In this document: positions 4,107 through 24,893 of the stretch, in pieces
How the letters are laid out: every line of letters starts with the position of its first letter
Numbering within the stretch: position 1 is the first letter of the stretch
Assembly: GCA_044225175.1 (NCBI GenBank)
Contig: JBGAJA010000002.1
Coordinates: forward strand, 82,917 to 146,916
Source: Candidatus Omnitrophota bacterium
GTDB taxonomy: Bacteria; Omnitrophota; Gorgyraeia; Zapsychrales; Fredricksoniimonadaceae
Direction: 5' to 3'
Length of the DNA: 64,000 bases
Notes under the pieces: generated by a model
What the model was told of the DNA's origin: nothing
What the model saw: the letters and a program-made list of their open reading frames with translations, nothing else
The model's database searches: none
Position numbers and translations under genes: made by a program

Positions 4107-4159
4107 AATGTAATCCCCCTGTTGTTAGGTTGAAGTTAAATATGTCCATAAAAGAAAAA

Positions 4160-4203
4160 GTCCCCCTTGAAATCTAACCAACTTTGGTATTTCAAGGAGG
4201 ACT
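4160..4203 (-). terminator. Leader intrinsic terminator between the glnN promoter and the glnN start (14-bp stem followed by U-run on the minus-strand RNA). It also lies downstream of glnK1.
   Basis: tcccccttgaaat...atttcaaggagga inverted repeat, followed on the minus strand by TTTTTCTTTT. Confidence 0.6.
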
Positions 4204-4230
4204 TCTTTGCCCTCTAAACTTAAGGCCTAA

Positions 4231-4259
4231 ATAATAATTAATACGCTTAAATCTGTCAA
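4231..4259 (-). promoter_or_regulatory. Sigma70-type promoter for glnN (TTGACA-17-TATTAT, read on the minus strand)
   Basis: Reverse complement of tgtcaa at 4254-4259 and ataata at 4231-4236, with a 17-nt spacer. Confidence 0.55.
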
Positions 4260-5955: not shown

Positions 5956-6041
5956 ATAGATACTTCTCCTTCATACCATTCTCCATTTGACCTAGTTCTC
6001 CGTCGGCGGATCCTGTGGCATCTATGCCTTATAAAAACAAA

Positions 6042-6084
6042 GAAGCTCAGAGATGTTCTCTTTGAAAGAACATCTCTGAGCTTC
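6042..6084 (-). terminator. Leader intrinsic terminator between the amt1 promoter and the amt1 start (perfect 17-bp stem followed by U-rich run on the minus strand)
   Basis: gaagctcagagatgttc-tctttgaaa-gaacatctctgagcttc, with an A-run on the + side at 6031-6041. Confidence 0.65.
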
Positions 6085-6134
6085 TTCGCTCTTATTAATT
6101 GAAGACCTCATTGCCCCCAATCCAATTGAGGGCA

Positions 6135-6163
6135 ATGATATCGTCAAAATTTTGAAATGTCAA
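6135..6163 (-). promoter_or_regulatory. Sigma70-type promoter for amt1-glnK1 (TTGACA-17-TATCAT, minus strand)
   Basis: Reverse complement of tgtcaa at 6158-6163 and atgata at 6135-6140, with a 17-nt spacer. Confidence 0.5.
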
Positions 6164-6593: not shown

Positions 6594-7844
6594 TTAATCT
6601 AAAATCGTATACGCACGTTCATGATGTTGTGTTAAATCAAGACCCATGACTTCATCTTCTTGAGATACACGAAGACCCATGACTTTATCAATTGCAAAAC
6701 AGATAATCCAAGTGGCGATTGCGGTGTAACCAATTGTGACTGAGCAAGCCACGAATTGATTCCACAATTGAGCCCCATTACCTAATAAAAGACCATCTGC
6801 ACCAGCACCATTGACTAACTTGGTTGCAAAGATACCTGTTGCCAAAGCACCCCATAACCCGCCGATACCATGGATACCGAAAGCATCGAGTGTGTCATCA
6901 TAACCAAACTTCGGTTTTACATAAGCAACCATGCAATAGCAGAAGATGCTAACTAAGAAACCAATCCATAAAGAACCACCGATGTCGACGAAACCGCAAG
7001 CAGGAGTAATTGCAACCAACCCTGCAACTGCACCGGAGACGACACCAACCATTGTTGGTTTTCCTGCAAAGATCCATTCCATCAAAGCCCAGCTAAGTGC
7101 AGCAGCAGCTGTGGCTGTGTTGGTTGTGACAAATGCATGAGCTGCTAAACCACTTGCACCTAAAGCAGAACCTGCATTGAAACCAAACCATCCAAACCAG
7201 AGTAAAGCAGCACCAATCACAATAAAAGGAACATTGTGCATACCTGGCTTTTCGGTATGACCAATACGCTTACCTAAATATAAGGCTGTAACCAAACCTG
7301 CAATACCTGCGTTGATATGAACAACAGTACCGCCAGCAAAGTCTAAGGCGCCTAAACCACGTAAGAACCCGCCAACACCCCAAACCATGTGTGCAATTGG
7401 GCAATAGACTAAAAGCAACCATAATGCGGTAAAAACTAAGAATGCAGAAAACTTCATACGTTCAGCAAAGGATCCAATAATGAGCGCTGGTGTAATGACC
7501 GCAAACATACATTGGAAGATCATAAAAGCCAAATGAGGAATGGTCGCTGCATAATCAGCGTTAGCATCTTGTCCAACACCTTTAAGCATAAACCAATCTA
7601 AACCACCCATAAAGGCGCTTCCCTTACCAAATGCTAAACTGTAACCTATTACCACCCATAAAATACTCACCAAAGCCAAGCACACAAAACATTGCATAAA
7701 AACACCTAAGATGTTCTTACGTCTAACCATACCTCCGTAAAATAAAGCGAGTGCTGGAACTGTCATCAACAAAACTAGTGCAGTTGATGCCAATACCCAT
7801 GCCGTGTCCCCGGCATTGATTGGATTTACTATTGTTGTATCCAT
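6594..7844 (-). CDS. amt: Ammonium transporter (Amt family), copy 2
   Basis: 416 aa, paralogous to amt1. Confidence 0.9.
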   Translation of the reverse strand: MDTTIVNPINAGDTAWVLASTALVLLMTVPALALFYGGMVRRKNILGVFMQCFVCLALVSILWVVIGYSLAFGKGSAFMGGLDWFMLKGVGQDANADYAATIPHLAFMIFQCMFAVITPALIIGSFAERMKFSAFLVFTALWLLLVYCPIAHMVWGVGGFLRGLGALDFAGGTVVHINAGIAGLVTALYLGKRIGHTEKPGMHNVPFIVIGAALLWFGWFGFNAGSALGASGLAAHAFVTTNTATAAAALSWALMEWIFAGKPTMVGVVSGAVAGLVAITPACGFVDIGGSLWIGFLVSIFCYCMVAYVKPKFGYDDTLDAFGIHGIGGLWGALATGIFATKLVNGAGADGLLLGNGAQLWNQFVACSVTIGYTAIATWIICFAIDKVMGLRVSQEDEVMGLDLTQHHERAYTILD

Positions 7845-7881
7845 TTACTTCCTCCTTGATTGTTTGTTAAACAATAAAAAA

Positions 7882-7917
7882 GCCCAATTCCCCGCAACCT
7901 TTTTGCGAAAAATTGGA
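7882..7917 (-). promoter_or_regulatory. Second terminator-like hairpin in the amt2 leader, directly before the start codon (stem GCCCAATT/AATTGGGC followed by U6)
   Basis: Minus strand reads cccaatt[tttcgcaaaaaggttgcgggg]aattgggcttttttatt. Confidence 0.45.
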
Positions 7918-7954
7918 CCTCTGTGTCCCGTAGGCATCATAGCCTAAATAAAAA

Positions 7955-7993
7955 ATCCTCTTAAAGGAGTTTCATTACTTCCTTAAAGAGGAC
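7955..7993 (-). terminator. Intrinsic terminator in the amt2 leader. It also lies downstream of the 1045-aa gene.
   Basis: tcctcttaaagga...tccttaaagagga stem with one mismatch, then TTTTTTATTT on the minus strand. Confidence 0.55.
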
Positions 7994-8059
7994 TATCTTT
8001 GCCCTTACTTCTTACTTCACGCCCAAAACATCTTTGCTTTGAGCTAAATAACTGGTGCA

Positions 8060-8088
8060 AATATATCTGATGCTTTTGGCTTTGTCAA
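8060..8088 (-). promoter_or_regulatory. Sigma70-type promoter for amt2-glnK2 (TTGACA-17-TATATT, minus strand)
   Basis: Reverse complement of tgtcaa at 8083-8088 and aatata at 8060-8065. Confidence 0.5.
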
Positions 8089-8097
8089 ATTGTTTTT

Positions 8098-11235: not shown

Positions 11236-11346
11236 GAAAACTCTCCAGATGATTCATTGAAATCCAACGATTATTAAGGGTAGCAGCTACGAGGCAAGGA
11301 TAACACACAAATCTTACTTGTCAAATTTAGCAATATGAAGGAAAAA

Positions 11347-11652
11347 TTACTCTGCTTTCTCAAATTCAAGCACAATTCCGCCTAAACGTGAGGCAATAAA
11401 GTTATAGAAGCCAGCAATCAAGCATCCTGTTAGGAAGCCTAATATTCCATTAATGATAGGCAACACTAGGATGGACCAAGCTCCCAGCCCCCACATTCCT
11501 GTCTCACCATTAACTAAAGATCCAAAAGTAACAATGATTCCAACCATTAAACCAACCAGTGTATGCAAAGCACTAAGGATGATCCCTAAGGATTTAAGGG
11601 AAATCTTCTTTAACTTGTAAATTATCGGTTCTCCTAAGACGGTATTCATCAT
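11347..11652 (-). CDS. Small membrane protein (101 aa, 2-3 predicted TM helices) between the two giant genes
   Basis: Hydrophobic ORF MMNTVLGEPIIYKLKKISLKSLGIILSALHTLVGLMVGIIVTFG.... It sits 19 nt after the stop of A and 111 nt before the start of B. Confidence 0.5.
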   Translation of the reverse strand: MMNTVLGEPIIYKLKKISLKSLGIILSALHTLVGLMVGIIVTFGSLVNGETGMWGLGAWSILVLPIINGILGFLTGCLIAGFYNFIASRLGGIVLEFEKAE

Positions 11653-11670
11653 TAATCTCCTTAAAATTAG

Positions 11671-14600
11671 CTATTCCGCCAATAATGTGTGGATCATGCT
11701 TTGAGAAACAGGTACAACCATTACAACTTCAGGCGTTATTCCATAGATGGATTGTATTGAAAAAGGCTCTATGCTAGGTTGATTAGTCCCTTGCTCTTGA
11801 AGATCTAATAAATGACTGTCCATATCAATGCCCCCTTTAATCTCAGAGAGGCCTTTAACAGGATTTGCGGTCATCATAGCCTGGTCTGAAGGAGATTTTC
11901 CAATCTCTTCAACCTTTGCAACCGTTTGAGGGTCAATCCCAATAGGTGAACGGGTAGTGTGAACGGAAATACTAGGATATGTCCAGGCCCGGTTCCAAAG
12001 GTGAATATCTTGAGGCTTAATACTCATCTTAAAAAGACCCAAATTGATCGTGAACTCAGGAAATATGGAAATGGTACTGGCCTTTTTATACATGGCATTA
12101 AACATCACCTTGTAAGCCATTAAACGGCCCAAAGGATCAAAAGCAAGGTTATTCATTTTCTTAATCACCTCACTATCCGTCGCATTTAATATCTGGCCTT
12201 GAATGTTGATGTGGTGATCTGTAATATTTTTATCTGAAAAATCCTCTCGGCCGATCGTAGTCACCTCTGCACCAGATACCAAACGATTGCCAAAAATACC
12301 ATTTCTAACCGCCTTAGCCTGTCTCAGAGTGACTTTAACAGCCTCTTTGGCCATTTGATCAACAGGAAGAGCACTAATAAGTTGTAGACCTCTGACAATG
12401 CGATGCGTAAATCTGGCTCCCAAATGATCTTCGGGGTTTCCTCCATGAACATTCATCGTCATGGAACCAGGCGCACGGGCCCCCATTTTGCTGACAAACG
12501 CAGTACTAATCTGATGCACAAAAGGAAGGTCTCCAATGACCATACTAGGAGGCCCCATTCTCGCCCATCGAGGCCTGCCGGTAAAGGTACGATAAATAAG
12601 TGTCGTAATTAAAAAAGGCGCCCACACCGCAACCATAAAGTCTGCTGTGGTTGCCCAAAAACCACTCATACTGCGAAGCGCAGGACCAGGGGGACATCCT
12701 AACGCATTCATGGCTAAATGAACTGGAGCTCCCATATAAAAAATACTAGCGACAAATGCTCTGAAGATAAAATTAACTTTAGGGGTTTCCAATAAATGTC
12801 CCCCGAGATACTGTCCATGATTAATTAGTTCTTGATGAACCTTGCTCTTAATGTCCCTGCCTTGCTCATCAACTCCTGTTATTCTTTTGGAATCTTTGAT
12901 CATTCCCTGAATCATGTCCTCGAGCCTTTTGAGATCGCTTTCTTGAACTTGTAAACCCCAAGGATTGTGATGAGGAAAAACTTCTCTTAATCGTTTAACC
13001 AAATGCCGTGTTAATAAAATCTGCTCTGCAAATAAAAGAATGTCTGAAGTAGGAGCTGCTTCTGCTGGATAGTAATCTCCCGTCGTAAAAATACGCCTTG
13101 TAAAAGGAGCATCCGGAGTTAATCTTTGCCCTAAAGCCATGTTGATCATGGCATCCAGACGAGAGGTCATCACAAATGTGTTGCCTTGAGTAATCTTATT
13201 TAAAAGTCCTGCTAAGGCCATGCTTGGAAATGTAGATCCGGAAAGAGATATGATTAAGCCGATTGTCCTATTGTTTATTTTAGATAGAGGGTCACGCAAT
13301 TTTTTATTAGAAGAGTTGGTTTCAATAGGCATTTTGGGCATAAAAATATGCAGTAATTGCTTAAAATTTTCACCTAACCACAAAGATTTTTCATAACCAC
13401 TAATATCTAAAACGGTGTTGTTGGAATCGTCCTTATTATTTAGTGTTTTTTGTTTTTGACGCAAACTTGAGATAGAACGATCAAAGTTAGCTATTAAATC
13501 ATCTAGAATTATTTTAATCTGAAGTTCGGTAAAAACCTGAAGCTCATGGTCCATTTGTTCAGCATGCTTTATAAGATCTTCATCTTTGATCTGTCTTGAT
13601 AGCAGCTTCTTATTTAAATCTTCTGCATAAGAAATAATGAAATTACTCGCCTGACTTTCAATGATGGCCACGATCAATGAGTTTTCCCAAGAAATGGAAT
13701 CTTGGTGCAAAAATTTCTTTTGATCTTCTGAACAAACCACTTGGCCTGATTCACAATCCTGTAAAAATTTGTGGATTCGCCTGACTACATCTGCACGCAA
13801 CAAAGAATACGTGAGGCTGTGTTTCTTTAAGAAATCTTCCACGTAACGAGAGGATGCCATTTCAGCAAAGGCTTCTGCAGATTGATAGTCAAAAGACCGT
13901 GGATTTTCCCAGTCCTTAACTTTGGTAGAGATGGCGTTGGATGTTCTTTCTAAATCTTCATCGATAATGTTTTGAGGATCTTTATATTCAATAGGGGGCT
14001 TGTAGTATGGATTATCTTCATTTAAAGAATAAAGCCGTTGTGAAATTTGTTCTGGGGTCAGATCTTTATTGCCGGAAGAACGCACCCTCACATAAAAGGC
14101 CTTTGTCTTTGAAAAACCAATGTCTGCAACCTCATCCTTTCTGGGATCTAACATAAATAACTTCTCTAAAGAACCTTTACTGCCAAATTTTCCCAATAAA
14201 ACCAAAGGGTCTGAGGCAAAGCTCAAAAACTTCTTCATTACATTAAAGCCAAACGCCATGCCTTGGGATTTTGAAAAAAGAGTCACTCCGTCATTTTGTA
14301 AAGAAGTCCTGACAACTAGCCCATAAGATCCTTCAGCTCTTTCTTTAAAATCCAAAGTGGCTTGAAAACGATTGCCAATAAAAAACCTTTCAACGGCCAT
14401 GTCCACAAATCGAATTCTAGTCTCTTGGCTTTGATTCCACCGACGTAAAATTTCTCCAGCTGGGGTTTGTTTTGAACCCTCTGCTTCTAAGCGTTTCACT
14501 AACTTTTCTTTAAACGCATTGATCTTGTGGTATTGAAACTTCAAATCCGGCCATTGATTAGCCATGTCTTTGCTTACCCACAAATCTTTAAATTCTTTAT

Positions 14601-17217
14601 TAGCCCCCAGATCAGGTCGCGAGAGCCCTGGGGCATCTTGGATAAAGATTTCTTCGAAGAGTTGCGCCATAGCATCTTCTTCTTCGATGTTTAGAATATC
14701 CCCCAAGGCTTCATCTGCTGTTTTATGATTGACCATGACATGGGCGTATCGAATCGATCCCCGCCAGCTGCCTTGAGTTAAATGAAAATGGATTTCTGGA
14801 GCCGTAGGTGGTGAGTCGCCCTCAGGCATATAGTCATAGCGCCCCTGGGTGCCCCTTTCTGGATCAGGAGGAATCCATACATCTTTCTTCATATGAACGA
14901 CTTTGCCAAAGAACTCTCGAATCTCTGTAAGATCAAGCATTCTGTCATGCAAATAATAATAATCATTGTCTCCGTTATGAGAGGTAGTGACCAAAACTTC
15001 TTTCTTATGGACCACCAGTTTTCCATCGCTAATTGCCCATTGAAGTCTTTCTTCTTTAGGACCTAAGAAAGGATGTGAGGCCCTTTTGCTGACAGCCCCT
15101 CCCGTGGCAAAACGCACATGACCATTGACTCCATGAACCATGACTTCACTATCAGCTGAATGCTTTGCTCCCTTGATGTCTTGTCTGAATTCACTGAGCA
15201 AGGAGCTTACTAAATCACTGCCTGCACCTCGTTTACTTTTAACGACCTTGGTCAAATAAACATTGGCTTCTCCATTAGAACCATCAATCATCACCTGTCC
15301 GGCCGACTGACCGCCTCTCACAATCAGACGCCTCATAAGCCCATCTACTCCCTCCTGCACCCATTGGGGATAAAGCCCTTGATTGGATTCATCAACCCAG
15401 AACACTCCATAATTGCCGCATTCGAATTTATCTGAATCAACAGGGAGTTTTTTAATGTCGGATTTCCATGAGGCCTTGATGGCATTCCATCCTGACACAC
15501 CGATAGGGCCTAAAAGAGGTAAAACCCAGGAATGTTCAAGCCCAAGAAAATAAGCGCTAATAGCTGTAGCGACTGTGGTAAGCCACGTTGCAGCGAATCC
15601 TGTATAATGGATGGTTTTTTTCCTCCAACCTTCACTGGAAAAAAGAACATAAGGGTTTTCTTTAGGTATTTGCCTCCAGGGTAATATTATTTGCAACCAT
15701 TGATTGAGACTGAAATTTGCTTTCAAATTATTAACACTTAAAGCTTCTTTCGATCGATGAGGATGGAATACGGCAGAGGACACAGCATGACCACCGACCT
15801 CATGAACCCCTATATTTAAGGCATATAATGCGCGTGTAATAAATGGCAAGGCAACCGCAGTCGTTATTAAACTCACTGGGTCCCATCCAACTGTACTAGT
15901 TGCTATGACCATGCCGCTACTCCAGCCTAAAAAATCCATCGATCTTGAGTATGTGGTCGCGGACTTTTGAGCAAAGTCTCTTTCTTTTCCTCCGACCAAA
16001 CGAGGAATAGAATTTCTAACTTCTCCTTCTATTAGCTTGAATGGATGCTTATTCGTCAAAGTTCTTTGATCAGGAAAACGCACAATGGAACCATGTTCAT
16101 CTGTAGCATTCAAATCGATAGTGGCCATGGCCAAATCACTGCCTAAGTCCATCCCTTGAGAATTCTCTATTTCACTGTAAACATGTTTGGTTTGAAGGCC
16201 GAATCCTATAAAATCCATCCCTCCTGATGCATATTTACGAGGAATAACTGTTTGATTTGAAGAATCATAATCTTCACGGATATAGTTATAAACCAGCTTT
16301 TTATATGCCTTCAGGTACTGTAAGAAAATCTTTTCTTTAATGTTCTTATCTTGAGCATCCACCCCTGTGATTTTATTTTTTCCAACATACTCTTGAGATA
16401 ACACGCTGCTTTTTAAATGTTTCTTGTACCATGTTGCTAAAATCATGGCATTGAAGACTTGGCGAACGACCGCAAAATTCTTTCCCTCATTGATTTCCCG
16501 CCTTAGTTCAGGAAGAATAATTTCTCGGACGATTTGGGCGTATTTTTCCGTAGGGGCAGGCCCCTGCCCGATATTTTTATCCATCGACACATAATCGTAT
16601 TCCAACATCACATCCAATTTGCTATCCACAACAAAAGCACTATCTCCCTTCACATAAACCTTGGCTGTTTTAGGGACGATCCAAACTTTATTAAAGGTAT
16701 TAATAGAAACATTGGTTGTGCCATAGATTTCTTGAGCCTTTAGATATATTTTTTGCCAAAACTTTCGGCCTAATTCATTTTCGGGGTAACTTAAAGAAGC
16801 CATGATTTGTTTAAGTAGATAGTCTTGTTCTAAAAGACTTTTCCCCATTTCCGTTCTACCAAAGTATTCAGGTGCAATGCGGTCCTTTTCATAGGGCGAA
16901 AGATTGACCCATAGATCACTTTCGGGAACTGTTAAGCAAGTAAGGAAATATTTGGTGAGTGTGGTAATTGCATCTTTTAAAGCTTGCCCTCTAAGGCCAG
17001 AAGCTCCTTCATCAATTAAGAAATCAAAACGCAAAGCATTATTCGTGTTGGTCTTAATCCCTTTTAATACCAAGGGTTTAAAAGAGGGGCTTGTAGAAAT
17101 CATCATCCCAGGAACAGGAAGATGAGGCATAGATTGAGCATGAGCATCCGGTAAAGGACCTAAGGAAGTAAGAAAAAATGCAAGAATGAGGATCTGAATA
17201 AGAATTTTCTTGATCAT
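11671..17217 (-). CDS. Giant protein A (about 1848 aa from ATG 17217; the ORF track uses an upstream TTG). It has a signal peptide, the shared N-terminal domain, several hydrophobic TM segments, an embedded class II (Ntn) glutamine-amidotransferase-like domain (residues about 604-760) and the shared C-terminal module. Function unknown.
   Basis: ...KFECGNYGVFWVDESNQG...RRLIVRGGQSAGQVMIDG...HGVNGHVRFATGGAVSKRASHPF...VTTSHNGDNDYYYLHDRM matches the GlmS/PurF/AsnB N-terminal motifs (CGIVG, RRLEYRGYDSAG, HTRWATHG..AHPH, VHNGIIENY). TM-like stretches include FIFRAFVASIFYMGAPVHLAMNALG and AVWAPFLITTLIY. Confidence 0.8.
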   Translation of the reverse strand: MIKKILIQILILAFFLTSLGPLPDAHAQSMPHLPVPGMMISTSPSFKPLVLKGIKTNTNNALRFDFLIDEGASGLRGQALKDAITTLTKYFLTCLTVPESDLWVNLSPYEKDRIAPEYFGRTEMGKSLLEQDYLLKQIMASLSYPENELGRKFWQKIYLKAQEIYGTTNVSINTFNKVWIVPKTAKVYVKGDSAFVVDSKLDVMLEYDYVSMDKNIGQGPAPTEKYAQIVREIILPELRREINEGKNFAVVRQVFNAMILATWYKKHLKSSVLSQEYVGKNKITGVDAQDKNIKEKIFLQYLKAYKKLVYNYIREDYDSSNQTVIPRKYASGGMDFIGFGLQTKHVYSEIENSQGMDLGSDLAMATIDLNATDEHGSIVRFPDQRTLTNKHPFKLIEGEVRNSIPRLVGGKERDFAQKSATTYSRSMDFLGWSSGMVIATSTVGWDPVSLITTAVALPFITRALYALNIGVHEVGGHAVSSAVFHPHRSKEALSVNNLKANFSLNQWLQIILPWRQIPKENPYVLFSSEGWRKKTIHYTGFAATWLTTVATAISAYFLGLEHSWVLPLLGPIGVSGWNAIKASWKSDIKKLPVDSDKFECGNYGVFWVDESNQGLYPQWVQEGVDGLMRRLIVRGGQSAGQVMIDGSNGEANVYLTKVVKSKRGAGSDLVSSLLSEFRQDIKGAKHSADSEVMVHGVNGHVRFATGGAVSKRASHPFLGPKEERLQWAISDGKLVVHKKEVLVTTSHNGDNDYYYLHDRMLDLTEIREFFGKVVHMKKDVWIPPDPERGTQGRYDYMPEGDSPPTAPEIHFHLTQGSWRGSIRYAHVMVNHKTADEALGDILNIEEEDAMAQLFEEIFIQDAPGLSRPDLGANKEFKDLWVSKDMANQWPDLKFQYHKINAFKEKLVKRLEAEGSKQTPAGEILRRWNQSQETRIRFVDMAVERFFIGNRFQATLDFKERAEGSYGLVVRTSLQNDGVTLFSKSQGMAFGFNVMKKFLSFASDPLVLLGKFGSKGSLEKLFMLDPRKDEVADIGFSKTKAFYVRVRSSGNKDLTPEQISQRLYSLNEDNPYYKPPIEYKDPQNIIDEDLERTSNAISTKVKDWENPRSFDYQSAEAFAEMASSRYVEDFLKKHSLTYSLLRADVVRRIHKFLQDCESGQVVCSEDQKKFLHQDSISWENSLIVAIIESQASNFIISYAEDLNKKLLSRQIKDEDLIKHAEQMDHELQVFTELQIKIILDDLIANFDRSISSLRQKQKTLNNKDDSNNTVLDISGYEKSLWLGENFKQLLHIFMPKMPIETNSSNKKLRDPLSKINNRTIGLIISLSGSTFPSMALAGLLNKITQGNTFVMTSRLDAMINMALGQRLTPDAPFTRRIFTTGDYYPAEAAPTSDILLFAEQILLTRHLVKRLREVFPHHNPWGLQVQESDLKRLEDMIQGMIKDSKRITGVDEQGRDIKSKVHQELINHGQYLGGHLLETPKVNFIFRAFVASIFYMGAPVHLAMNALGCPPGPALRSMSGFWATTADFMVAVWAPFLITTLIYRTFTGRPRWARMGPPSMVIGDLPFVHQISTAFVSKMGARAPGSMTMNVHGGNPEDHLGARFTHRIVRGLQLISALPVDQMAKEAVKVTLRQAKAVRNGIFGNRLVSGAEVTTIGREDFSDKNITDHHINIQGQILNATDSEVIKKMNNLAFDPLGRLMAYKVMFNAMYKKASTISIFPEFTINLGLFKMSIKPQDIHLWNRAWTYPSISVHTTRSPIGIDPQTVAKVEEIGKSPSDQAMMTANPVKGLSEIKGGIDMDSHLLDLQEQGTNQPSIEPFSIQSIYGITPEVVMVVPVSQSMIHTLLAE
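16548..16570. repeat. REP-family sequence (GGGCAGG-cc-CCTGCCCCTACGG on the coding strand) embedded in frame in gene A, encoding GQGPAPTE, in a region that differs from paralog B
   Basis: Direct reading. It has the same CCTGCCCCTAC half as the intergenic REP at 4690-4712. Confidence 0.6.
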
Positions 17218-17231
17218 AATGGCTTTCAAAT

Positions 17232-17248
17232 TCCGCCAAAGGCGGATC
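17232..17248. repeat. 17-nt hairpin motif TCCGCCAAAGGCGGATC about 15 nt upstream of the giant gene A start codon. An identical copy is at 37348-37364, upstream of nuoD.
   Basis: Exact 17/17 match between the two loci. Stem CCGCC/GGCGG with an AAA loop. Confidence 0.7.
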
Positions 17249-17266
17249 TGCCATAGGCAGAAAAAA

Positions 17267-17307
17267 AGCCCAACGCTCTTTTGATTTTCACCAAAAAGAA
17301 TTGGGCT
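17267..17307 (-). promoter_or_regulatory. Terminator-like hairpin 2 in the giant-operon leader (stem AGCCCAA/TTGGGCT, then U7 on the minus strand)
   Basis: Minus RNA reads ...agcccaattctttttggtgaaaatcaaaagagcgttgggctttttttct. Confidence 0.45.
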
Positions 17308-17324
17308 TCAACGCCAATAAAAAA

Positions 17325-17353
17325 CCCAATGTCCTCGTCTCGAGTCATTGGGC
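17325..17353 (-). promoter_or_regulatory. Terminator-like hairpin 1 in the giant-operon leader (CCCAATG...CATTGGG, then U6)
   Basis: Minus RNA reads cccaatgactcgagacgaggacattgggttttttatt. It lies downstream of a candidate promoter TTGACA(17457-17462)-16-TATGCT. Confidence 0.45.
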
Positions 17354-17478
17354 ATCAGTGTCCTTGTCCTACAAGCAGTTATACCGACTTCCTTGCCGAA
17401 CTGCTTTTATTAAAATCTTGTTAAGACCGTGTTAAGCATACTATCTTTTTTTGCTTTGTCAAGAATGCGGAGGAATGT

Positions 17479-18750
17479 TTACAAAGATTTTTGCAGATCA
17501 GCCATCAAAATAATGGATTCGGCAATGTCTTTCATGGAGCGGCAGGAGTCCATGCTTTTTTTGTGGATGAGTCGATAAGCGGCATCTTCTGAGATTGAGT
17601 TCATCTTCATAATAATCCCTTTGGCACGTTCCACAAGCTTGCGCGTTTCTAAGGCTTCTTTGGCTTTGAGGGCTTCTTCCATGAGCTTGGTGTTTTCAAC
17701 AGCAACGGCTGCTTGATTTGCTACCATTTGCAGAACGTTGACCTCTTCGTCGGAGAAACGGTGCTGTTCTTTGGTGTAGACATTGATAACCCCAATGGCC
17801 TTATCTTTAACTATCATGGGAACAGCTACCATAGATGTTAAACCTTCCTTAACAGCCAAATCTCGATAGGCATACATTTTGTCATTTCTAACATCATAGA
17901 CTGTGATTGGTTTTCGTGTTTTAAGAACTGTGCCGCTTAAGGAAGTCTCTACTTTAATATTAGGTTTCTTTTTATAATCTTCACTCAAAGACTGTGTGGC
18001 TTTAATGACAAGATCGCTTCCTTTATCATCTAAAAGCATGACAGAACAAATCTTGGAATTAAGCATTTCTGCCGTCACAACGACAATCAAATTTAGAATT
18101 TCATCGAGATAGTGTTCGGAAGTGATTGACTGGCTGACTTTAATAAGAGAATCAAATTGCAAAGCTTTCTTTTTGGTTTCATCAAAAAGCCTTGCATGCT
18201 CAATAATGCCTCCCACCTGTTTAGCAATCATTTCAATAAGATTGATGGTGGTCTGGGAATAATCTTGTTCACGTTTATGTTGGACATTGATAACGCCAGT
18301 TGCCTTACCCTTAAAAATAACAGGGACAGAAAGAAACGCTTCATAGCGATCTTCTGGAAGAACATCAAAACTCTTGAAGCGTTGATCTTTGTAGGCTAGT
18401 TTTGAGATGGCGACCGTCTTACTTTCACGAGCTACCCACCCTGTAATTCCTTCCCCGATTTCCAAGTGCACCTTCCCTAACTCTTTAGTGTGAACCGTTT
18501 TGGAAGCCATTAGCACCAAAAATTCTTTCTTATCATCAAAAAGATAGATAAAAACAGAATCTGCCTTAGTCATTTCGGTCACGATTTTAACAATTAATTG
18601 GAGAGTCAGGTGTAAGTCAAGTTCGGAAGAGGCTATATCAACGACTGATCGAAGAACTTTAAGCTCTTCGTTGGAAGAAATATTAAGTGTTTTCTGGGGT
18701 GCCTTATTTTTCATGGGGGTTATTATATCCATCGACTCAACTAGACACAA
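17479..18750 (-). CDS. GAF-GAF-ANTAR RNA-binding antitermination regulator
   Basis: 423 aa. It has two GAF-like domains (...LHLTLQLIVKIVTEMTKADSVFIYL..., ...LDEILNLIVVVTAEMLNSKICSVMLLDD...) and a C-terminal ANTAR helix bundle, ALETRKLVERAKGIIMKMNSISEDAAYRLIHKKSMDSCRSMKDIAESII. Confidence 0.8.
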   Translation of the reverse strand: MCLVESMDIITPMKNKAPQKTLNISSNEELKVLRSVVDIASSELDLHLTLQLIVKIVTEMTKADSVFIYLFDDKKEFLVLMASKTVHTKELGKVHLEIGEGITGWVARESKTVAISKLAYKDQRFKSFDVLPEDRYEAFLSVPVIFKGKATGVINVQHKREQDYSQTTINLIEMIAKQVGGIIEHARLFDETKKKALQFDSLIKVSQSITSEHYLDEILNLIVVVTAEMLNSKICSVMLLDDKGSDLVIKATQSLSEDYKKKPNIKVETSLSGTVLKTRKPITVYDVRNDKMYAYRDLAVKEGLTSMVAVPMIVKDKAIGVINVYTKEQHRFSDEEVNVLQMVANQAAVAVENTKLMEEALKAKEALETRKLVERAKGIIMKMNSISEDAAYRLIHKKSMDSCRSMKDIAESIILMADLQKSL

Positions 18751-18905
18751 CTAGTTTATTACATTGATTAAAAATGATTGCAAACCATTGAAATAAATCG
18801 ATTTATATAAATATTTCTCTTCCTTGACTTGACAATCAGGTGGTTTTTATGGCAGACTTTAAATAGGGATCGCTATAATAACTTTAAAAATTGAGGAGAT
18901 TATTT

Positions 18906-19103
18906 ATGACAAAACTAACTTTTTTACTGACAGCCTTTATTGTAGTAATGTTTAGTTCTCAAAGTTTTGCTGTTCCCCATGTTACTAAATTCTCAGGAAA
19001 GCCATCTCATTTAGGAAGCGCTAAGGCTAATGCAGCCAAGTCCGCTTCACAAGCGTCTAGGTCTTCAAACGCCTCACATATGAGAGCTTCTCCTCATCGT
19101 TAA
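18906..19103 (+). CDS. Small secreted protein (65 aa, signal peptide MTKLTFLLTAFIVVMFSSQSFA)
   Basis: Good ribosome-binding site ttGAGGAGattatttATG, and a downstream intrinsic terminator. Confidence 0.45.
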   Translation: MTKLTFLLTAFIVVMFSSQSFAVPHVTKFSGKPSHLGSAKANAAKSASQASRSSNASHMRASPHR

Positions 19104-19117
19104 GCTAAATTTTATAT

Positions 19118-19147
19118 AAACCCCATGGCATCTCCTGTCATGGGGTT
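19118..19147 (+). terminator. Intrinsic terminator (CCCCATG-gcatctcctgt-CATGGGG followed by TTTT)
   Basis: Direct reading. Confidence 0.6.
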
Positions 19148-19255
19148 TTGCTTTTAACAAATCCTACAATATTCTTGACACTCTTATCTTTGTTTATATA
19201 TTGGATATGTGTTTCAATACTGTGTTCGAATTTACCTTTAGAAAACGACATTTCA

Positions 19256-19783
19256 ATGAATATTCCTGATCTATCTTTTTACTTCTTTGCTGCGATTTTG
19301 GTGTTCGCTAGTTTGTCGGTAGTTGCGGCTCGCAATCCTCTATATAATGTTCTGTCCTTAGTACTTGCAATCTTTTGTCTTTCTTCTTTATTTATTCTCA
19401 TGGAAGCTTATTTCGTAGGCATGATTCTGATTTTGGTCTACGCGGGTGCGGTCTTAGTTTTCTTTTTATTCGTTGTTATGTGCTTAAATTTAAATGCCGC
19501 TGCTATCACATCAGCCAAACAAAACCGCCTTAGACTCTTAGGAAGCCTGGTAGGGGTTGCCTTTCTATTAGAATTTCTTTTAGCCACCAAAAGTTTTATG
19601 GCAGCCCAAAATTTTGGCCCTACTACAGTCCGTGGAACAATTGAGGTGATTGGCAGAATCCTTTTTACAGATTATCTTCTTCCTTTTGAATTAACTTCCC
19701 TTCTCTTATTGATTGCTGTCTTTGGAATTGTATCTTTGGCTCAAGGAGCCTTTAGTACGGGTAAAGAGGTCGAACAATCATGA
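19256..19783 (+). CDS. nuoJ: NADH-quinone oxidoreductase subunit J
   Basis: MNIPDLSFYFFAAILVFASLSVVAARNPLYNV... aligns with the NuoJ N-terminus. The ORF track start at 19148 lies inside the upstream terminator. Confidence 0.85.
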   Translation: MNIPDLSFYFFAAILVFASLSVVAARNPLYNVLSLVLAIFCLSSLFILMEAYFVGMILILVYAGAVLVFFLFVVMCLNLNAAAITSAKQNRLRLLGSLVGVAFLLEFLLATKSFMAAQNFGPTTVRGTIEVIGRILFTDYLLPFELTSLLLLIAVFGIVSLAQGAFSTGKEVEQS

Positions 19784-20082
19784 TCGATATTCAATCTTAC
19801 TTAGTTCTCAGTGGTATTATTTTTGCTATTGGCTTAGTTGGTATTATGACCAGCCGTAGCGTTCTCAAAGTTCTTCTCTCTCTAGAACTTCTTTTGGCTG
19901 CCTCCAATTTATTGTTCGTGGCTTTCTCAAGATTTAATGGCGACTATGCGGGACAGTTGATTGTGTTCTTTGTCATTTTGGTTGCCGCAGCCGAAGTGGC
20001 TATCGGTTTGGCCATCATTGTTTTGATGTATCGCCGTTTAAACACGATTCAAGCCGATGAATTAAAGGAAATGAAATGGTAA
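19780..20082 (+). CDS. nuoK: NADH-quinone oxidoreductase subunit K
   Basis: 100 aa, 3 TM: MIDIQSYLVLSGIIFAIGLVGIMTSR. Confidence 0.9.
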   Translation: MIDIQSYLVLSGIIFAIGLVGIMTSRSVLKVLLSLELLLAASNLLFVAFSRFNGDYAGQLIVFFVILVAAAEVAIGLAIIVLMYRRLNTIQADELKEMKW

Positions 20083-21920
20083 ATCCTTGTTTAGTTTGGA
20101 CCTCTTATTTTGCGCCCCTGGTTGCTTGCATTATCATCACTTTGTTTTTCCTGCGTAATAAAAATCTAAGCTCATTGACCGCCATTGCCGGAATCTTGAC
20201 ATCCTTTATTTGCACAGTTTTAACAGCCATTCAAATTTTTAGCAGTCATCCTGCTTTAGAAGTCCAGCAATCCTTCACATGGATTCAGTTTGATCAGTTA
20301 ACCATTAACTTTGGGTTCTTAGTCAATCCTTTGGCCATTATGATGATGATGGTTGTCACAGGGGTTGGCAGTGCGATTTTCATTTATTCCCGCGGATACA
20401 TGGCTGATGATGAAAGCATGCCTCGCTTCTTTGCTTTCTTGAGTCTCTTTGCCTTTTCCATGATCGGCATTGTCTTATCTAATAATCTTATTCAATTATT
20501 TATCTTCTGGGAATTGGTTGGGTTAAGCTCCTATTTACTTATTAGCTTCTGGTATCAAAAGCCTTCTGCCGCTGATGCGGGGGTCAAAGCTTTCATGGTC
20601 AATCGCTTGGCTGATTTTGGTTTCTTGTGCGGCATTCTTCTTCTTTGGAGTCTTTCAGGGGTAGGTGGTGCACCGCGCAGTTTTCAAATCACAGATTTAG
20701 CATCTTGTGTCTCTGGCATGGATCCACATTTGCTTGGCATTGCCGCTTTACTACTCTTTTGCGGGGTCATGGGTAAATCAGCCCAAGTGCCTTTGCATGT
20801 GTGGCTGGTGGATGCTATGGAAGGTCCGACACCTGTGAGCGCCTTAATCCATGCGGCAACGATGGTGGCCGCTGGCGTATACTTACTGGCCCGTACATTC
20901 TTTATCTTTGAACCTTTGCATGATGCCTTAACCGTGATTGCTTATGTGGGTGGTTTTACAGCTTTGATGGCAGCTACCTTAGCTGTGGCTGAAAATGATA
21001 TTAAAAGAATCTTGGCTTATTCAACGCTTAGCCAATTAGGGTTGATGGTCATGGCTTTAGGTTTAGCTGGTCCTGTGCAAGGGATGTTTCACTTAACAAC
21101 CCATGCCTTCTTTAAGGCTTTGTTGTTCTTAGGCGCAGGCAGCGTGATCTACGGGCTTCATCACGAACAAAATATTTGGAAGATGAAAGGCGTGCTTTCA
21201 ACCATGCCTATTACAGGGATTACCTTCTTAATTGGCACATTGGCTTTAGCGGGCATCTTTCCTTTAAGTGGTTTCTGGAGTAAAGATGAGATATTAGCCT
21301 TGGCCCGTGAACATAACACATTGCTTTATGGCATGGCCTCCTTAGCTTCATTCCTCACAGCCTTCTATATGGGCCGCTTGTTCTTTATCGCTTTCTGGGG
21401 TAAACCTGCCCCTCACGATCACACCCATGAATCACCTGCTGTGATGACTTTACCTTTGATTTTTTTAGCCATTCTGTCGGTCATTGGCGGTGTTATTGGT
21501 ATTCCTCATTACATTTTCCCGGATCATGAAGCAGAATCCTTAAACATGCAAGTGGCTATCGTCTCTTCTGTGATTGCTGTTCTTGGACTTGCCATTTCCT
21601 ATGCTTTGTATGGCAAACGTCCAAACGTGGATCCTTTGGAAAAAGGTCTGGGCGGATTTTATTTAGTCTTAAAGAACAAATATTATTTCGATACTGTCTA
21701 TGGATGGTACGTTGATTACGTGCAACAAGGATTTGCCCTGGCATTAGCTTGGTTTGAGAGAATATTCATTGTTCGCTTAGGCGTGCATGGTATGGAAACA
21801 TTAGCTAAGGCAAGCGGCAAAGCATTACGGTTCTTACAAACCGGATTTGTACAGTTTTATGCCTTAGTGTTTATCTTTGGTGTAGTGTATTTATTTTATG
21901 TGATGGTTAAAGGCTTATGA
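20076..21920 (+). CDS. nuoL: NADH-quinone oxidoreductase subunit L
   Basis: 614 aa antiporter-like subunit. Confidence 0.9.
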   Translation: MVNPCLVWTSYFAPLVACIIITLFFLRNKNLSSLTAIAGILTSFICTVLTAIQIFSSHPALEVQQSFTWIQFDQLTINFGFLVNPLAIMMMMVVTGVGSAIFIYSRGYMADDESMPRFFAFLSLFAFSMIGIVLSNNLIQLFIFWELVGLSSYLLISFWYQKPSAADAGVKAFMVNRLADFGFLCGILLLWSLSGVGGAPRSFQITDLASCVSGMDPHLLGIAALLLFCGVMGKSAQVPLHVWLVDAMEGPTPVSALIHAATMVAAGVYLLARTFFIFEPLHDALTVIAYVGGFTALMAATLAVAENDIKRILAYSTLSQLGLMVMALGLAGPVQGMFHLTTHAFFKALLFLGAGSVIYGLHHEQNIWKMKGVLSTMPITGITFLIGTLALAGIFPLSGFWSKDEILALAREHNTLLYGMASLASFLTAFYMGRLFFIAFWGKPAPHDHTHESPAVMTLPLIFLAILSVIGGVIGIPHYIFPDHEAESLNMQVAIVSSVIAVLGLAISYALYGKRPNVDPLEKGLGGFYLVLKNKYYFDTVYGWYVDYVQQGFALALAWFERIFIVRLGVHGMETLAKASGKALRFLQTGFVQFYALVFIFGVVYLFYVMVKGL

Positions 21921-23395
21921 TTCCAAACATTCTTTCCTTGATTCTCTTAACTCCCGTCGTGGGATTAGCTTTGCTTTTTTTAATTCCTTCCCAAAAGACG
22001 GATTTGATTCGTAAGGTGAGCTTTTGGGCTACATTTATTCCCTTTGCTTTATCTGTGTATGTCTTTGCTTCCTATAATCCCTACTTAGGCGGTTATCAAT
22101 TTATTGAGATGATTCCTTGGGTCACTCCGTTAGGAATCTCCTACCACCTGGGGGTAGATGGCATTAACTCTATGCTTTTAGTCCTCTTAGGTGTTGCTTC
22201 GTTTACCTCGGTCATGGTGAGTGGCAATATCAAGGATCGCATCAAAGAATATTTCATCATGCTTATGTTAATTGTGATTGGCACATATGGCGCCTTCTTA
22301 TCCGTCGATATGTTCTTCTTTTATTTCTTCCACGAAATTGCTGCCATTCCAGTATTCTTGATGATTGCTATCTATGGTTCCCAGCGCCGTGATTATGCTG
22401 CCATGAAGCTTACCCTCTATTTAACTGCTGGCGCATCTTTGGCCTTGATTGGTTTGATTGCTCTTTATCTAAAGGTAGGTATTGGAAGCTTTGATTTGAT
22501 CGCGATCCAAGAGCATTTGGTCAACAATCCTATTCCTATTGCTGTTCAGCATTGGATCTTTCCTTTAATTGTGATCGGATTTGGCATCACATTAACCTTG
22601 TTCCCCTTTCATACATGGGCTCCCGTCGGATATGCAGAAGCACCGACCGCTGTCAGTATGCTGCACGCAGGTGTCCTTAAGAAAATGGGCGCTTATGCCA
22701 TCATCCGTTTTGCCATTCAATTAATGCCGGAAGCGGCCCACACATGGATGCCCATTATTGCTGTCTTGGCTGTCGTTAACATACTCTTTTGCGGTTTGGT
22801 TGCCCTCACCCAGCGCGATATCAAATACATTTTAGGATATTCCAGCTGCAGCCATATGGGCTATATCTTGCTTGGGCTTGCTTGCTATAACGTGATTGGA
22901 CTCAATGGGGTCGTCTTTATGATGTTTGCCCACGGCATTATGGCTACCCTAGCCTTCGCCTTAACAGGATTTATTGAAAACCAAACCAAAACACGAAACT
23001 TAGATGAATTGGGTGGAATCGCCAAACGCCTTCCTTTTATTTCCACATGTTTCATTATGGTTGCCTTAGCATCCGCTGGCGTTCCTGGATTTGCGAATTT
23101 TGTTTCTGAACTTTTAGTGTTATTAGGCGCATGGGACCAATACCGTTGGTTAACGGTCCTTGGCGTTCTTGGGATTGTTCTGGGCGCCATCTACATGCTT
23201 AAGATTATTCGTTTAGCTTTGCAAGGACCGTTAGGCCCTGGCATGGACAAATTAGTGGATGCCAAAGGCTTAGTGGCCAAGTTTCCATATGTACTATTAC
23301 TAGGAATTTTAATTTGGGTAGGCTGCTTTCCCTCAACATTGATTAAACATATTGAGACAAGCACCAAACCTGTAGCAGTTATATTGCAGAAATAA
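21917..23395 (+). CDS. nuoM: NADH-quinone oxidoreductase subunit M
   Basis: 492 aa antiporter-like subunit. Confidence 0.9.
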   Translation: MIPNILSLILLTPVVGLALLFLIPSQKTDLIRKVSFWATFIPFALSVYVFASYNPYLGGYQFIEMIPWVTPLGISYHLGVDGINSMLLVLLGVASFTSVMVSGNIKDRIKEYFIMLMLIVIGTYGAFLSVDMFFFYFFHEIAAIPVFLMIAIYGSQRRDYAAMKLTLYLTAGASLALIGLIALYLKVGIGSFDLIAIQEHLVNNPIPIAVQHWIFPLIVIGFGITLTLFPFHTWAPVGYAEAPTAVSMLHAGVLKKMGAYAIIRFAIQLMPEAAHTWMPIIAVLAVVNILFCGLVALTQRDIKYILGYSSCSHMGYILLGLACYNVIGLNGVVFMMFAHGIMATLAFALTGFIENQTKTRNLDELGGIAKRLPFISTCFIMVALASAGVPGFANFVSELLVLLGAWDQYRWLTVLGVLGIVLGAIYMLKIIRLALQGPLGPGMDKLVDAKGLVAKFPYVLLLGILIWVGCFPSTLIKHIETSTKPVAVILQK

Positions 23396-23397
23396 TA

Positions 23398-23429
23398 CCC
23401 GTAGGGGGCACGGCATGCCGTGCCCGTAC
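23398..23429. repeat. REP element CCCGTAGGGGGCACGGCATGCCGTGCCCGTAC in the nuoM-nuoN spacer
   Basis: Same family as the copy at 6565, in the opposite orientation. Confidence 0.75.
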
Positions 23430-23447
23430 TGTACAGAAAGAATACAC

Positions 23448-24893
23448 ATGTTCCCCGTCATCGATTGGAATTTATTTTCTTTAGAAGCTTTAATCACAAG
23501 CATCCTTGTTGGCTTAGTGATTATTGAAATGTTCCTGCCTAAGGATGAACGCCAGGATGTCATTGGCATCTTAAGTGTGATCAGCACCGTCGGACTACTT
23601 GCCTTTTGGTTGACCCAACAAAATTTAGCTGGTATCACATTCAGCGGCATGTTTGTGATGGATTCATTGGCCTGGTTCTTTAAGGCTTTCTTCTTAGTTG
23701 CCATGATTTTTATCTTTGGCATGACACAGCATTTCTTTAAATCTTTAGATGGCAGACGCAATGAATTCTATTTGCTACTGTGGCTGGCTTTGCTGGGTAT
23801 GTGCTTGGTGGCCTCATCCGCAGACTTCCTGATGGTGTTTATCTCTATTGAGATTCTAACGATTTCTTTGTATGTCATGACTGCCTATTTGAAAAGCGAC
23901 AAGCTTTCGATTGAAGCTGGGATGAAATATTTGATTTTAGGTGCCCTTTCTTCAGGTTTTTTACTTTATGGTATTAGCTTCTTATACGGGGCAACCCAGT
24001 CAACCAACTTCCTTACCATCCTAAATTACGTTCAAACACATGCCATGAATCCCATGATGCTCTTTGGTTTAGTGCTTGTCTTTGCAGGGGTTGGTTTTAA
24101 GATTGCAGCGGTCCCCTTTCATATGTGGGCCCCCGATGTTTATCAAGGCGCTCCAGCTCCGGTTACTGCCTTATTGTCGGTGGGATCTAAAGCTGCAGGA
24201 TTTGTGATTTTGATTCGTTTATTCTTCGGTATCTTAGAGCCCTGGCATCCTCAATGGAGCATGGTCTTAGCTGTTTTAGCGGCTATCAGCATGACATACG
24301 GCAACCTGGTCGCCATGTTTCAAACCAATATCAAACGTGTCTTTGGTTATTCAAGTATTGCGCATGCCGGATATCTATTAATGGGTGCTGCGGCAGGAAG
24401 CGCGCTCGGTGCAACCGCCATGAATTACTATTTGCTGGGATATTTATTTACAAATCTTGCTGCATTTACCGTGATCGTTATATTCTTTGTGGCAACCAAA
24501 TCTGATGAAATTGATGACTATGCCGGACTTGCCAAACGCTCCGCCATCTTAGGAACAACACTACTTTTAGCACTCGTTTCTTTGGCTGGCATTCCACCCT
24601 TAGCAGGCTTCTTCGGTAAATTCACATTACTCATGGCAACTGTCCAAGCCGGTTTCGTCTGGTTAGCCCTAGTTGCCGCGGTCAATATCGTCATTTCCCT
24701 CTACTACTACATGACAATCGCCAAACGCATGTACGTCGATGCACCAAAAACTAACACCCCCATCATCGTCTCTCCCATGATGCGTATCCTATTAATCCTC
24801 GCCATGACCGGAATCATAGTCATCGGCATCTTCCAAGGCCCCTTCACCGACGCCGCCCTTACTGCAGTCCAAGGAATGTACCTGCACCCTTAA
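23448..24893 (+). CDS. nuoN: NADH-quinone oxidoreductase subunit N
   Basis: MFPVIDWNLFSLEALITSILVGLVIIEMF.... The ORF-track start at 23415 falls inside the REP. Confidence 0.85.
   Translation: MFPVIDWNLFSLEALITSILVGLVIIEMFLPKDERQDVIGILSVISTVGLLAFWLTQQNLAGITFSGMFVMDSLAWFFKAFFLVAMIFIFGMTQHFFKSLDGRRNEFYLLLWLALLGMCLVASSADFLMVFISIEILTISLYVMTAYLKSDKLSIEAGMKYLILGALSSGFLLYGISFLYGATQSTNFLTILNYVQTHAMNPMMLFGLVLVFAGVGFKIAAVPFHMWAPDVYQGAPAPVTALLSVGSKAAGFVILIRLFFGILEPWHPQWSMVLAVLAAISMTYGNLVAMFQTNIKRVFGYSSIAHAGYLLMGAAAGSALGATAMNYYLLGYLFTNLAAFTVIVIFFVATKSDEIDDYAGLAKRSAILGTTLLLALVSLAGIPPLAGFFGKFTLLMATVQAGFVWLALVAAVNIVISLYYYMTIAKRMYVDAPKTNTPIIVSPMMRILLILAMTGIIVIGIFQGPFTDAALTAVQGMYLHP

Follow-up and report, generated by a model that had tools for sequence, protein, structure and literature searches.

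A GAF-GAF-ANTAR protein as a candidate transcription antiterminator of nitrogen genes in Omnitrophota and Nitrospirota

We analyzed a 64-kb stretch of a Candidatus Omnitrophota genome (the window, in whose positions all coordinates are given) that contains a gene for a protein with two GAF domains and an ANTAR domain, here called the regulator. The genes relevant here, from the regulator gene to glnN, encoding a glutamine synthetase, and a GATase gene, all lie on the minus strand and include two ammonium transporter genes (amt1 and amt2), each followed by a PII/glnK gene, and two genes for large proteins, giant A and giant B (Table 1). We consider it likely that the regulator is a one-component, nitrogen-status-responsive transcription antiterminator. 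Directly observed are the domain architecture of the protein and the RNA elements in leaders of these genes, which overlap terminators, are conserved and occur together with the regulator gene across phyla. A preliminary description of this DNA had suggested a sensor-gated antitermination circuit acting on local leaders; comparative evidence now supports the glnN and amt part of that suggestion strongly, and the part concerning the giant operon only moderately.

The open reading frame (ORF) that encloses the regulator gene spans 17479..18750 (-), and its probable start is the ATG at 18714, because the resulting 411 aa is the length of nearly all homologues. ORF and Pfam analysis bear out the description of a GAF-GAF-ANTAR gene beside the giant A leader: both GAF domains are recognized (PF13185, 142 bits), and the ANTAR domain (PF03861, residues 351-402) scores 72.2 bits and thus lies above the curated cut-off of 27.3. 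The same part of the protein matches the ANTAR domains of EutV (6wsh), Rv1626 (1s8n) and NasR (4akk). An AlphaFold2 model with an overall predicted local distance difference test score (pLDDT) of 77 shows the domain layout, and the helices predicted at residues 322-372, 376-390 and 394-410 (pLDDT 79-90) correspond to a long helix and a three-helix bundle. As modelled, the C-terminus thus has the layout of ANTAR antiterminator proteins, in which a long dimerization helix runs into a three-helix bundle.

Within positions 1-19200 the top five sigma-70-like sites are all on the minus strand, one each in front of giant A, giant B, amt1, amt2 and glnN. Intrinsic terminators occur in all of these leaders except that of giant B, whose own promoter-like site is at 11324-11297. 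Folding confirmed the terminators in the three nitrogen leaders (glnN, amt1 and amt2) that the preliminary description had reported nearby. That description had seen no canonical ANTAR hexaloops by eye, and had named a lack of ANTAR-type dual hairpins in every local leader as part of the outcome that would speak against its circuit; here it has to be corrected, since hairpins with such loops are present in the local leaders. They are of one small type, GGRC-ANNGRN-GUCC, with a hexaloop that carries A at position 1 and G at position 4 (A1/G4), and their 3' arm forms the first 4-6 nt of the 5' arm of a terminator. We refer to this hairpin as P2 and to a hexaloop hairpin upstream of it as P1. At every site in the window, P2 and the 5' arm of the terminator have nucleotides in common. 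A1/G4 hexaloops are found in glnN (AAAGAA), amt1 (ACAGAG), P1 of amt2 (AAUGAG), and P1 (AAGGAA) and P2 (ACUGAU) of giant A; the amt1, amt2 and giant A leaders contain both P1 and P2, and the glnN leader, which is too short for P1, contains P2 alone. The P2 hairpins of the window leaders have folding energies of -0.3 to -7.9 kcal/mol, compared with -15 to -45 kcal/mol for the terminators, and a weak P2 combined with a strong terminator is the arrangement required of a protein-stabilized antiterminator.

We compared 87 related loci in all (labelled L001-L087). P1 of amt1 module 1 shows a compensatory stem change among the orthologues in L001, L081 and L083, and the P2 loop of amt2, which has G at position 1, corresponds to GAGC-ACAGAA-GCUC in L083. 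Immediately 3' of the amt2 terminator, a GGC-AUAGAU-GCC hairpin at 6017-6028 (-) is followed within the next ~20 nt by UCC-GCCGAC-GGA; both are kept in L083, and the pair resembles an amt1 module 2 whose terminator was lost. At the Rfam gathering threshold no family matches any leader, and the only match in the window is a tRNA gene (52188-52259 (-)). The scan for the ANTAR-target model that had been proposed as a check gave no match to the leaders at gathering or at E <= 10; at the latter threshold there was likewise no glutamine-riboswitch or other relevant family, and the leaders returned spurious microRNA and small RNA matches on terminator hairpins, the palindrome of the amt2 terminator attracting microRNA precursors.

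The loose pattern GRCANNGNNGYC matches eight times in the window, against 3.37 matches expected for its 128,000 strand-positions, and six of the eight fall on the coding strand of the ~936 nt that make up four leaders, where ~0.025 would be expected. A scan that accepted A..G.. loops on stems of 4 bp or more together with any T-run returned hundreds of matches and was uninformative; this loose scan was replaced by the core pattern combined with a folded terminator, by a covariance model and by a terminator-first test. The covariance model was built from 52 sites of other genomes, included no window sequence and was run against the window with filters off, and its top four matches were glnN, amt1 module 1, amt2 and amt1 module 2. 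The seeds had been picked by a regular expression that demands the core and a terminator, which makes the core scores partly circular but leaves the biases in strand, position and gene content unaffected.

Because the seeds were chosen by pattern, we therefore carried out the additional terminator-first test, in which the hairpin sequence is unspecified and the criterion is a hairpin of at least 3 bp with an A1/G4 hexaloop that starts at most 3 nt from the terminator stem. Such a hairpin is carried by 43 of the 66 terminators (65%) located in the 420 nt that precede amt, glnN or nadE, compared with 42 of 643 other terminator-like sites (6.5%), and many of these 42 are clearly the same element in front of other genes. 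Among 49 leader sites the loop has A1 in 43, G4 in 47, A2 in 35 and a purine at position 5 in 44. The P2 stem is kept mostly as sequence (GGRC/GUCC in 36/43 sites), with GGC/GCC, GAGC/GCUC, AGAC/GUCU and UGGC/GCCA as occasional variants, and 17 of the 43 sites also have a P1 hairpin, against an expectation of 6.8, in most cases 13-27 nt from P2 on its 5' side.

Relatives of the regulator with the same architecture and ~411 aa number in the thousands, and the nearest are found in metagenome-assembled genomes of Candidatus Omnitrophota (70-100% identity). From more than 579 loci detected in a scan of one genome per species, we took 80 for comparison: 30 from Omnitrophota and 50 others at 47-55% identity, mostly from Nitrospirota with some from Acidobacteria and Elusimicrobia. 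In Omnitrophota the genes directly after the regulator gene, which share its strand, are either amt-PII-(amt-PII)-glnN-GATase or start with glnN; in Nitrospirota the regulator gene is followed by the hairpin motif, a terminator and nadE. Motif matches lie on the strand of the regulator in 46/48 cases in Omnitrophota and in 41/42 cases in the other phyla, where many are at most ~300 nt past the regulator stop codon. The amt and glnN leaders of the relatives contain the same modules of hairpin and terminator, often two or three in tandem. Behind 53 sites with motif and terminator, the first gene most often encodes NadE (17), an ammonium transporter (12) or glutamine synthetase (8); cyanate lyase, GlnD, PtsP, porins and the regulator itself occur once or twice each. 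The 17 NadE sites (glutamine-dependent NAD synthetase) are all in Nitrospirota-type loci, directly after the regulator gene. In L045-L075 NadE consists of CN_hydrolase and NAD_synthase (~592-597 aa) and its gene often has no obvious promoter of its own; in Nitrospirota, the regulator gene and nadE may belong to one operon that a conditional terminator divides. The hairpin and terminator also precede the gene for PtsP (EI-Ntr) in L030 (14668-16995) and the regulator gene in L025 (75-1460), a hint that some lineages have autoregulation and cross-talk with PTS-Ntr.

The closest tested system is GnfK/GnfR of Geobacter sulfurreducens, in which the experimentally bound GnfR site CAGGCAANGGCGCC is a GGC-AANGGC-GCC hairpin that overlaps terminators in front of glnK, amtB and nif genes (PMC2995071). 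On the RNA side the match is close: both systems combine an ANTAR output, a nitrogen regulon and a single conserved hairpin overlapping an intrinsic terminator, and the loop of the GnfR site is nearly identical to the Nitrospirota loops AAAGGC, AAUGGC and AAGGGC. The stem is GGRC/GUCC in our leaders, however, and the regulon is without nif but with nadE, glnN and perhaps a large secreted protein. The sensor side here is of another kind, as GnfR is a receiver (REC)-ANTAR protein that is phosphorylated by a histidine kinase and whose expression needs a second two-component system (PMC2995071), whereas the regulator has two GAF domains and no receiver.

The A1/G4 loop rule and the overlap of P2 with the terminator have been described for ANTAR systems (PMC3369931), and a 2022 structural study reduced the minimal ANTAR binding unit to one hexaloop (PMC8934654). 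EutV/EutW of Enterococcus faecalis shares with the present leaders the A1/G4 hexaloops, a P2 that uses the terminator 5' arm and several terminators per locus, and EutV, which is dimeric, has a coiled-coil and three-helix ANTAR like the fold predicted here (PMC3369931, PMC8934654). EutV requires both hairpins and a short, length-sensitive linker, and its signals are ethanolamine and phosphorylation; here P1 is missing at ~60% of the sites, the linker is long, mostly 13-27 nt, and loops of 7 nt also occur. A further difference from the known ANTAR systems is a series of up to three attenuators. NasR of Klebsiella is likewise a one-component ANTAR antiterminator for nitrogen assimilation with an A1 and G4 leader hairpin, but it senses nitrate and nitrite through a NIT domain, has no GAF domain and controls a single operon (PMC7496416). 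PtsP and NifA, finally, share with the regulator the GAF domains of nitrogen-status sensors, but their outputs are phosphotransfer and sigma-54 activation, respectively, whereas the output predicted here is RNA binding.

Based on these observations, we infer RNA binding, a ligand and a polarity for the regulator. The target units would be amt1-glnK, amt2-glnK, glnN and probably giant A, each with a strong sigma-70-type promoter from which transcription would enter a leader with one or two intrinsic terminators at its end. Unaided, the small P2 hairpin would be much weaker than the terminator and transcription would stop; an ANTAR dimer that binds the P2 loop and holds the hairpin would keep the terminator from forming, and the polymerase would read through. 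An upstream P1 hexaloop may sometimes recruit the ANTAR dimer first, tandem modules would act as serial checkpoints, and the two GAF domains would set the activity of the ANTAR domain.

Besides the partial circularity of the core scores, six points weigh against this mechanism: (i) the P2 stem is conserved as sequence, so that covariation support for the hairpin is limited; (ii) P1 is present at only ~40% of sites, with a P1-P2 linker of mostly 13-27 nt, and lengthening the linker by 20 nt abolishes EutV function (PMC8934654); (iii) the P2 loop of amt1 module 1 has 7 nt; (iv) the candidate P2 of giant A scores 8.8 bits (E 4.1 window-wide, rank 10) and contains an A.C mismatch; (v) likeness of GAF domains alone does not fix the ligand, as GAF domains bind many things; and (vi) another ANTAR protein, encoded outside the 64 kb, could be the true partner of the hairpins.

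With respect to the ligand, GAF-A is closest to the GAF domain of PtsP/EI-Ntr (3ci6, E 3.5e-26, ~34-38% identity), with Foldseek template modelling (TM) scores of 0.87-0.90 at 33-34% identity, and matches positions 2-161 of PRK11061 (E 9.5e-40), and the top NCBIfam match of GAF-B (residues ~186-367) is the N-terminal GAF domain of NifA (TIGR01817 positions 3-183, E 5.7e-29); both family matches are far under the full-length cut-offs, only the GAF portion being aligned. The GAF domain of Azotobacter NifA binds 2-oxoglutarate. That of PtsP binds glutamine (PMC4848567). As judged by these sequence likenesses, the ligands of the regulator may be glutamine and/or 2-oxoglutarate, and it would act as an antiterminator at low glutamine and/or high 2-oxoglutarate, that is, under nitrogen limitation, because the genes of the regulon are normally induced by nitrogen limitation. 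It is quite possible, if not what we favor, that the regulator works as proposed while its GAF domains sense a cyclic nucleotide or cyclic di-GMP, nitrate, nitrite or nitric oxide, redox state, or a partner such as PII. The overall tandem-GAF fold is nearest in Foldseek to the GAF pairs of phosphodiesterases and CyaB that bind cyclic nucleoside monophosphates, GAF-B contains a weak match to the nitrate sensor NreA, two glnK genes lie within the regulon, and the ANTAR protein NasT binds cyclic di-GMP (PMC10783516). Identity to the phosphodiesterase GAF domains is only 13-19%, however, the top sequence matches remain the PtsP and NifA GAF domains, and the regulon is one of general ammonium assimilation and not nitrate-specific.

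In the giant A leader, minus-strand reading and folding placed the promoter, both terminator hairpins and the pair of small GC hairpins where the preliminary description had them. Its folding energy beats all 200 shuffles (z = -4.7), and its elements are collinear with those of the amt leaders (TTGACAAAGC promoter, P1, P2, terminator 1, second module), so that it looks like a diverged duplicate of an amt leader. Orthologues of giant A (50-54% identity) hold the same slot in L085 and L086, followed by small ORFs of 99 and 90 aa in place of the 101-aa ORF found here. Their leaders are 72% identical per column to that of the window, and promoter, P1, P2 and both terminators are kept: the promoter as TTGACAAAC...TATACT, P1 with an invariant stem and with A1 and G4 retained (AAAGAA in L085, AAGGUU in L086), P2 with the loops ACUGAU (window), AUUGAA and AAUGAG, and the two terminator stems with three compensatory pair changes between them, two of which are in terminator 1. 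In L085 the orthologue of P2 scores 11.2 bits and keeps the A.C mismatch, and the module-2 mini-hairpin reads GGAC-AAUGUG-GCCC. Terminator 2 ends 43 nt before the ATG, which leaves no space for a promoter 3' of the terminators, and with the promoter 5' of both, giant A can be expressed only via read-through. In this sub-lineage the regulon has probably recruited giant A, on weaker evidence than for the nitrogen genes.

We find it doubtful that the regulator governs the nitrogen genes only, in which case the hairpins after its stop codon would serve as tandem terminators at its 3' end or represent an amt leader copy in decay, and giant A would be expressed by leak or in response to another signal. 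Such a reading would accommodate the low score, rank and mismatch of the giant A P2, its instability when folded alone (-0.3 kcal/mol), and the second mini-hairpin, whose loop begins with G instead of A. It would also fit the nearest relatives, since L083 (87% identity) has no giant genes and the giant slot of L081 (90% identity) is taken by a toxin-antitoxin pair and another protein, of 1606 aa; giant A is absent from this slot in most relatives, and in L019, L020 and L005 no motif precedes the giant homologues. It sits poorly, however, with a near-consensus promoter in front of both terminators, from which a giant A transcript must cross both, with a leader kept in L085 and L086, including A1/G4 in P1 and P2, at a protein identity of just 50-54%, and with the clean P2 of L086 (GGC-AAUGAG-GCC, 17.0 bits). 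Two other accounts of the giant A region were also considered. A one-off insertion of the giant operon, as suggested by L083, L081 and most loci, was dropped in view of the conserved leader of the L085 and L086 orthologues, and the hairpin pair is unlikely to be mere 3' terminators of the regulator gene, as the conserved promoter lies upstream and none fits downstream.

It is improbable that the hairpin is read by another factor (a second ANTAR protein such as a REC-ANTAR, a PII-type protein or a small-molecule riboswitch) and that the regulator is merely a neighbour: although the like-shaped Geobacter site is bound by a REC-ANTAR protein, the motif trails the regulator gene at ~100-300 nt in ~20 Nitrospirota loci and at a few hundred nt in Omnitrophota despite differing downstream genes, 87 of 90 motif matches in total are on its strand, the leaders match no riboswitch or other family in Rfam, and a ligand pocket would not fit into so small an element.

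ANTAR antitermination of nitrogen genes is already established, and the tandem-GAF sensor of the proposed antiterminator is the new part. Characterized ANTAR regulators are driven by receiver or pseudo-receiver, NIT, or LOV/PAS domains, and reviews to late 2025 list GAF-ANTAR merely as an architecture; in the literature searched, which included these reviews, we found no characterized GAF-ANTAR protein, nothing that links ANTAR to Nitrospira and no description of nitrogen regulation in Nitrospira. The architecture gains a candidate regulon (amt, glnK, glnN or glnA, nadE, urea-type transport, cyanase, GlnD and PtsP), a precise RNA site and a testable ligand hypothesis, and the tandem attenuators would provide a compact natural example of serial termination checkpoints. 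The pair of regulator and site is conserved from Omnitrophota to Nitrospirota, which include Nitrospira, a key group of nitrifiers. In the cultured Nitrospira sp. KM1 the regulator, annotated as 'conserved protein of unknown function', is present together with a canonical dual-hairpin leader (L087, terminator at 9440-9500) in front of an operon that encodes a periplasmic binding protein and a urea/branched-chain amino acid-type permease, which makes the hypothesis directly testable in this strain. Much more tentatively, the regulator might be a PII-independent one-component integrator that acts on nascent RNA, with glutamine at the PtsP-like GAF-A and 2-oxoglutarate at the NifA-like GAF-B, and might be the chief regulator of nitrogen assimilation in Omnitrophota and in Nitrospirota, nitrite-oxidizing Nitrospira among them, having recruited a large secreted protein in one Omnitrophota lineage; if so, that protein would tie nitrogen starvation to a cell-surface or host-directed function.

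Table 1. Genes and leader elements of the regulator locus, in order of transcription (window positions)
Feature	Position	Strand	Details
Regulator, GAF-GAF-ANTAR	17479-18714	(-)	411 aa; Pfam
Regulator domains			GAF-A ~14-176, linker helix, GAF-B ~200-340, long helix + three-helix ANTAR ~322-410 (residues)
Giant A leader	17218-17478	(-)	261 nt
Giant A leader promoter	17435..17462	(-)	TTGACA-16-TATGCT; near-consensus
Giant A leader P1	17375..17404	(-)	CGGC-AAGGAA-GUCG (17398-17385), extended by GCAG/CUGC
Giant A candidate P2	17350..17363	(-)	GGAC-ACUGAU-GCCC; 3' arm inside terminator 1 5' arm; A.C mismatch
Giant A terminator 1	17316..17353	(-)	GCCCAAUG...CAUUGGGU + U6; -15.3 kcal/mol
Giant A module-2 mini-hairpin	17304..17315	(-)	GGC-GUUGAA-GCC; overlaps terminator 2 5' arm; loop position 1 = G
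Giant A terminator 2	17261..17307	(-)	+ U7; -17.8 kcal/mol
Two small GC hairpins of giant A leader	17260-17248 and 17245-17233	(-)	
Giant A	11671-17217	(-)	1848 aa; signal-peptide-like start, no Pfam family
Small ORF after giant A	11347-11652	(-)	101 aa
Giant B	8098-11235	(-)	1045 aa
amt1 leader promoter	8060..8088	(-)	TTGACA-17-TATATT; 11/12 consensus
amt1 module 1 P1	8021..8044	(-)	GCUCAAAGC-AAAGAU-GUUUUGGGC
amt1 module 1 P2	7989..8005	(-)	AGGGC-AAAGAUA-GUCCU; runs into terminator 1; 18.8 bits, E 0.012, second-best covariance-model match
amt1 terminator 1	7946..7994	(-)	
amt1 module 2 P1	7932..7945	(-)	AGGC-UAUGAU-GCCU; orthologues align
amt1 module 2 P2	7915..7928	(-)	GGAC-ACAGAG-GUCC; overlaps terminator 2; 15.4 bits
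amt1 terminator 2	7872..7921	(-)	
amt1	6594-7844	(-)	Pfam Ammonium_transp
PII/glnK after amt1	6194-6535	(-)	Pfam P-II
amt2 leader promoter	6135..6163	(-)	TTGACA-17-TATCAT
amt2 P1	6097..6122	(-)	GAUUGGGGGC-AAUGAG-GUCUUCAAUU; 15.7 bits
amt2 P2	6078..6091	(-)	GAGC-GAAGAA-GCUC; within terminator 5' arm
amt2 terminator	6031..6095	(-)	31-bp near-perfect hairpin + U-run; -44.7 kcal/mol
amt2	4717-5955	(-)	Pfam Ammonium_transp
PII/glnK after amt2	4291-4632	(-)	Pfam P-II
glnN leader promoter	4231..4259	(-)	TTGACA-17-TATTAT
glnN P2	4197..4214	(-)	GAGGGC-AAAGAA-GUCCUC; 24.6 bits, E 4e-4, top covariance-model match in window
glnN leader terminator	4150..4207	(-)	
glnN, type III glutamine synthetase (GSIII)	1962-4106	(-)	Pfam
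GATase	1156-1854	(-)	

Giants A and B share an N-terminal module of ~335-376 aa (16090-17217 (-) in A, 10108-11235 (-) in B) with 47% identity and a signal-peptide-like start, and otherwise only a short C-terminal GGID...PVII..IQP motif. The module occurs at 50-64% identity in more than 2700 Omnitrophota proteins, whose middle regions differ widely: they include Ser/Thr kinase with PP2C, transketolase, transaldolase, TIM, isocitrate lyase/malate synthase, Glu dehydrogenase, adenylate kinase, PGI, peptidase M3, REC and HEAT. It matches no Pfam or NCBIfam family, its AlphaFold2 model (pLDDT 70) has no significant match in the PDB, and a likeness to ClyA-family toxins (E 0.16, TM 0.15) was not accepted as evidence. 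It has the appearance of a conserved module for targeting or anchoring whose cargo is polymorphic.

Three further features were noted. The 13-nt GC hairpin CCGCCTTTGGCGG just before the start of giant A (17233-17245) is not conserved in the leaders of L085 and L086 and has a second copy at 37349-37361 (-). A short ORF for a hydrophobic peptide of ~30-45 aa (for example MVDKAYVMAGVIILSEVILAIGLFWAVETHLV in L007), absent from the amt1 leader of the window, lies between the last leader terminator and amt in L004 (~11880-12000), L007 (~11450-11550), L013 (~2340-2480) and L001 (~2780-2860). Finally, the divergent genes at 19148-24893 (+) are of the nuoJ-K-L-M-N type (Oxidored_q3, Oxidored_q2 and three Proton_antipo_M), named by synteny with L081, L083 and L086, and the junction between the regulator and nuo genes is kept in these relatives.

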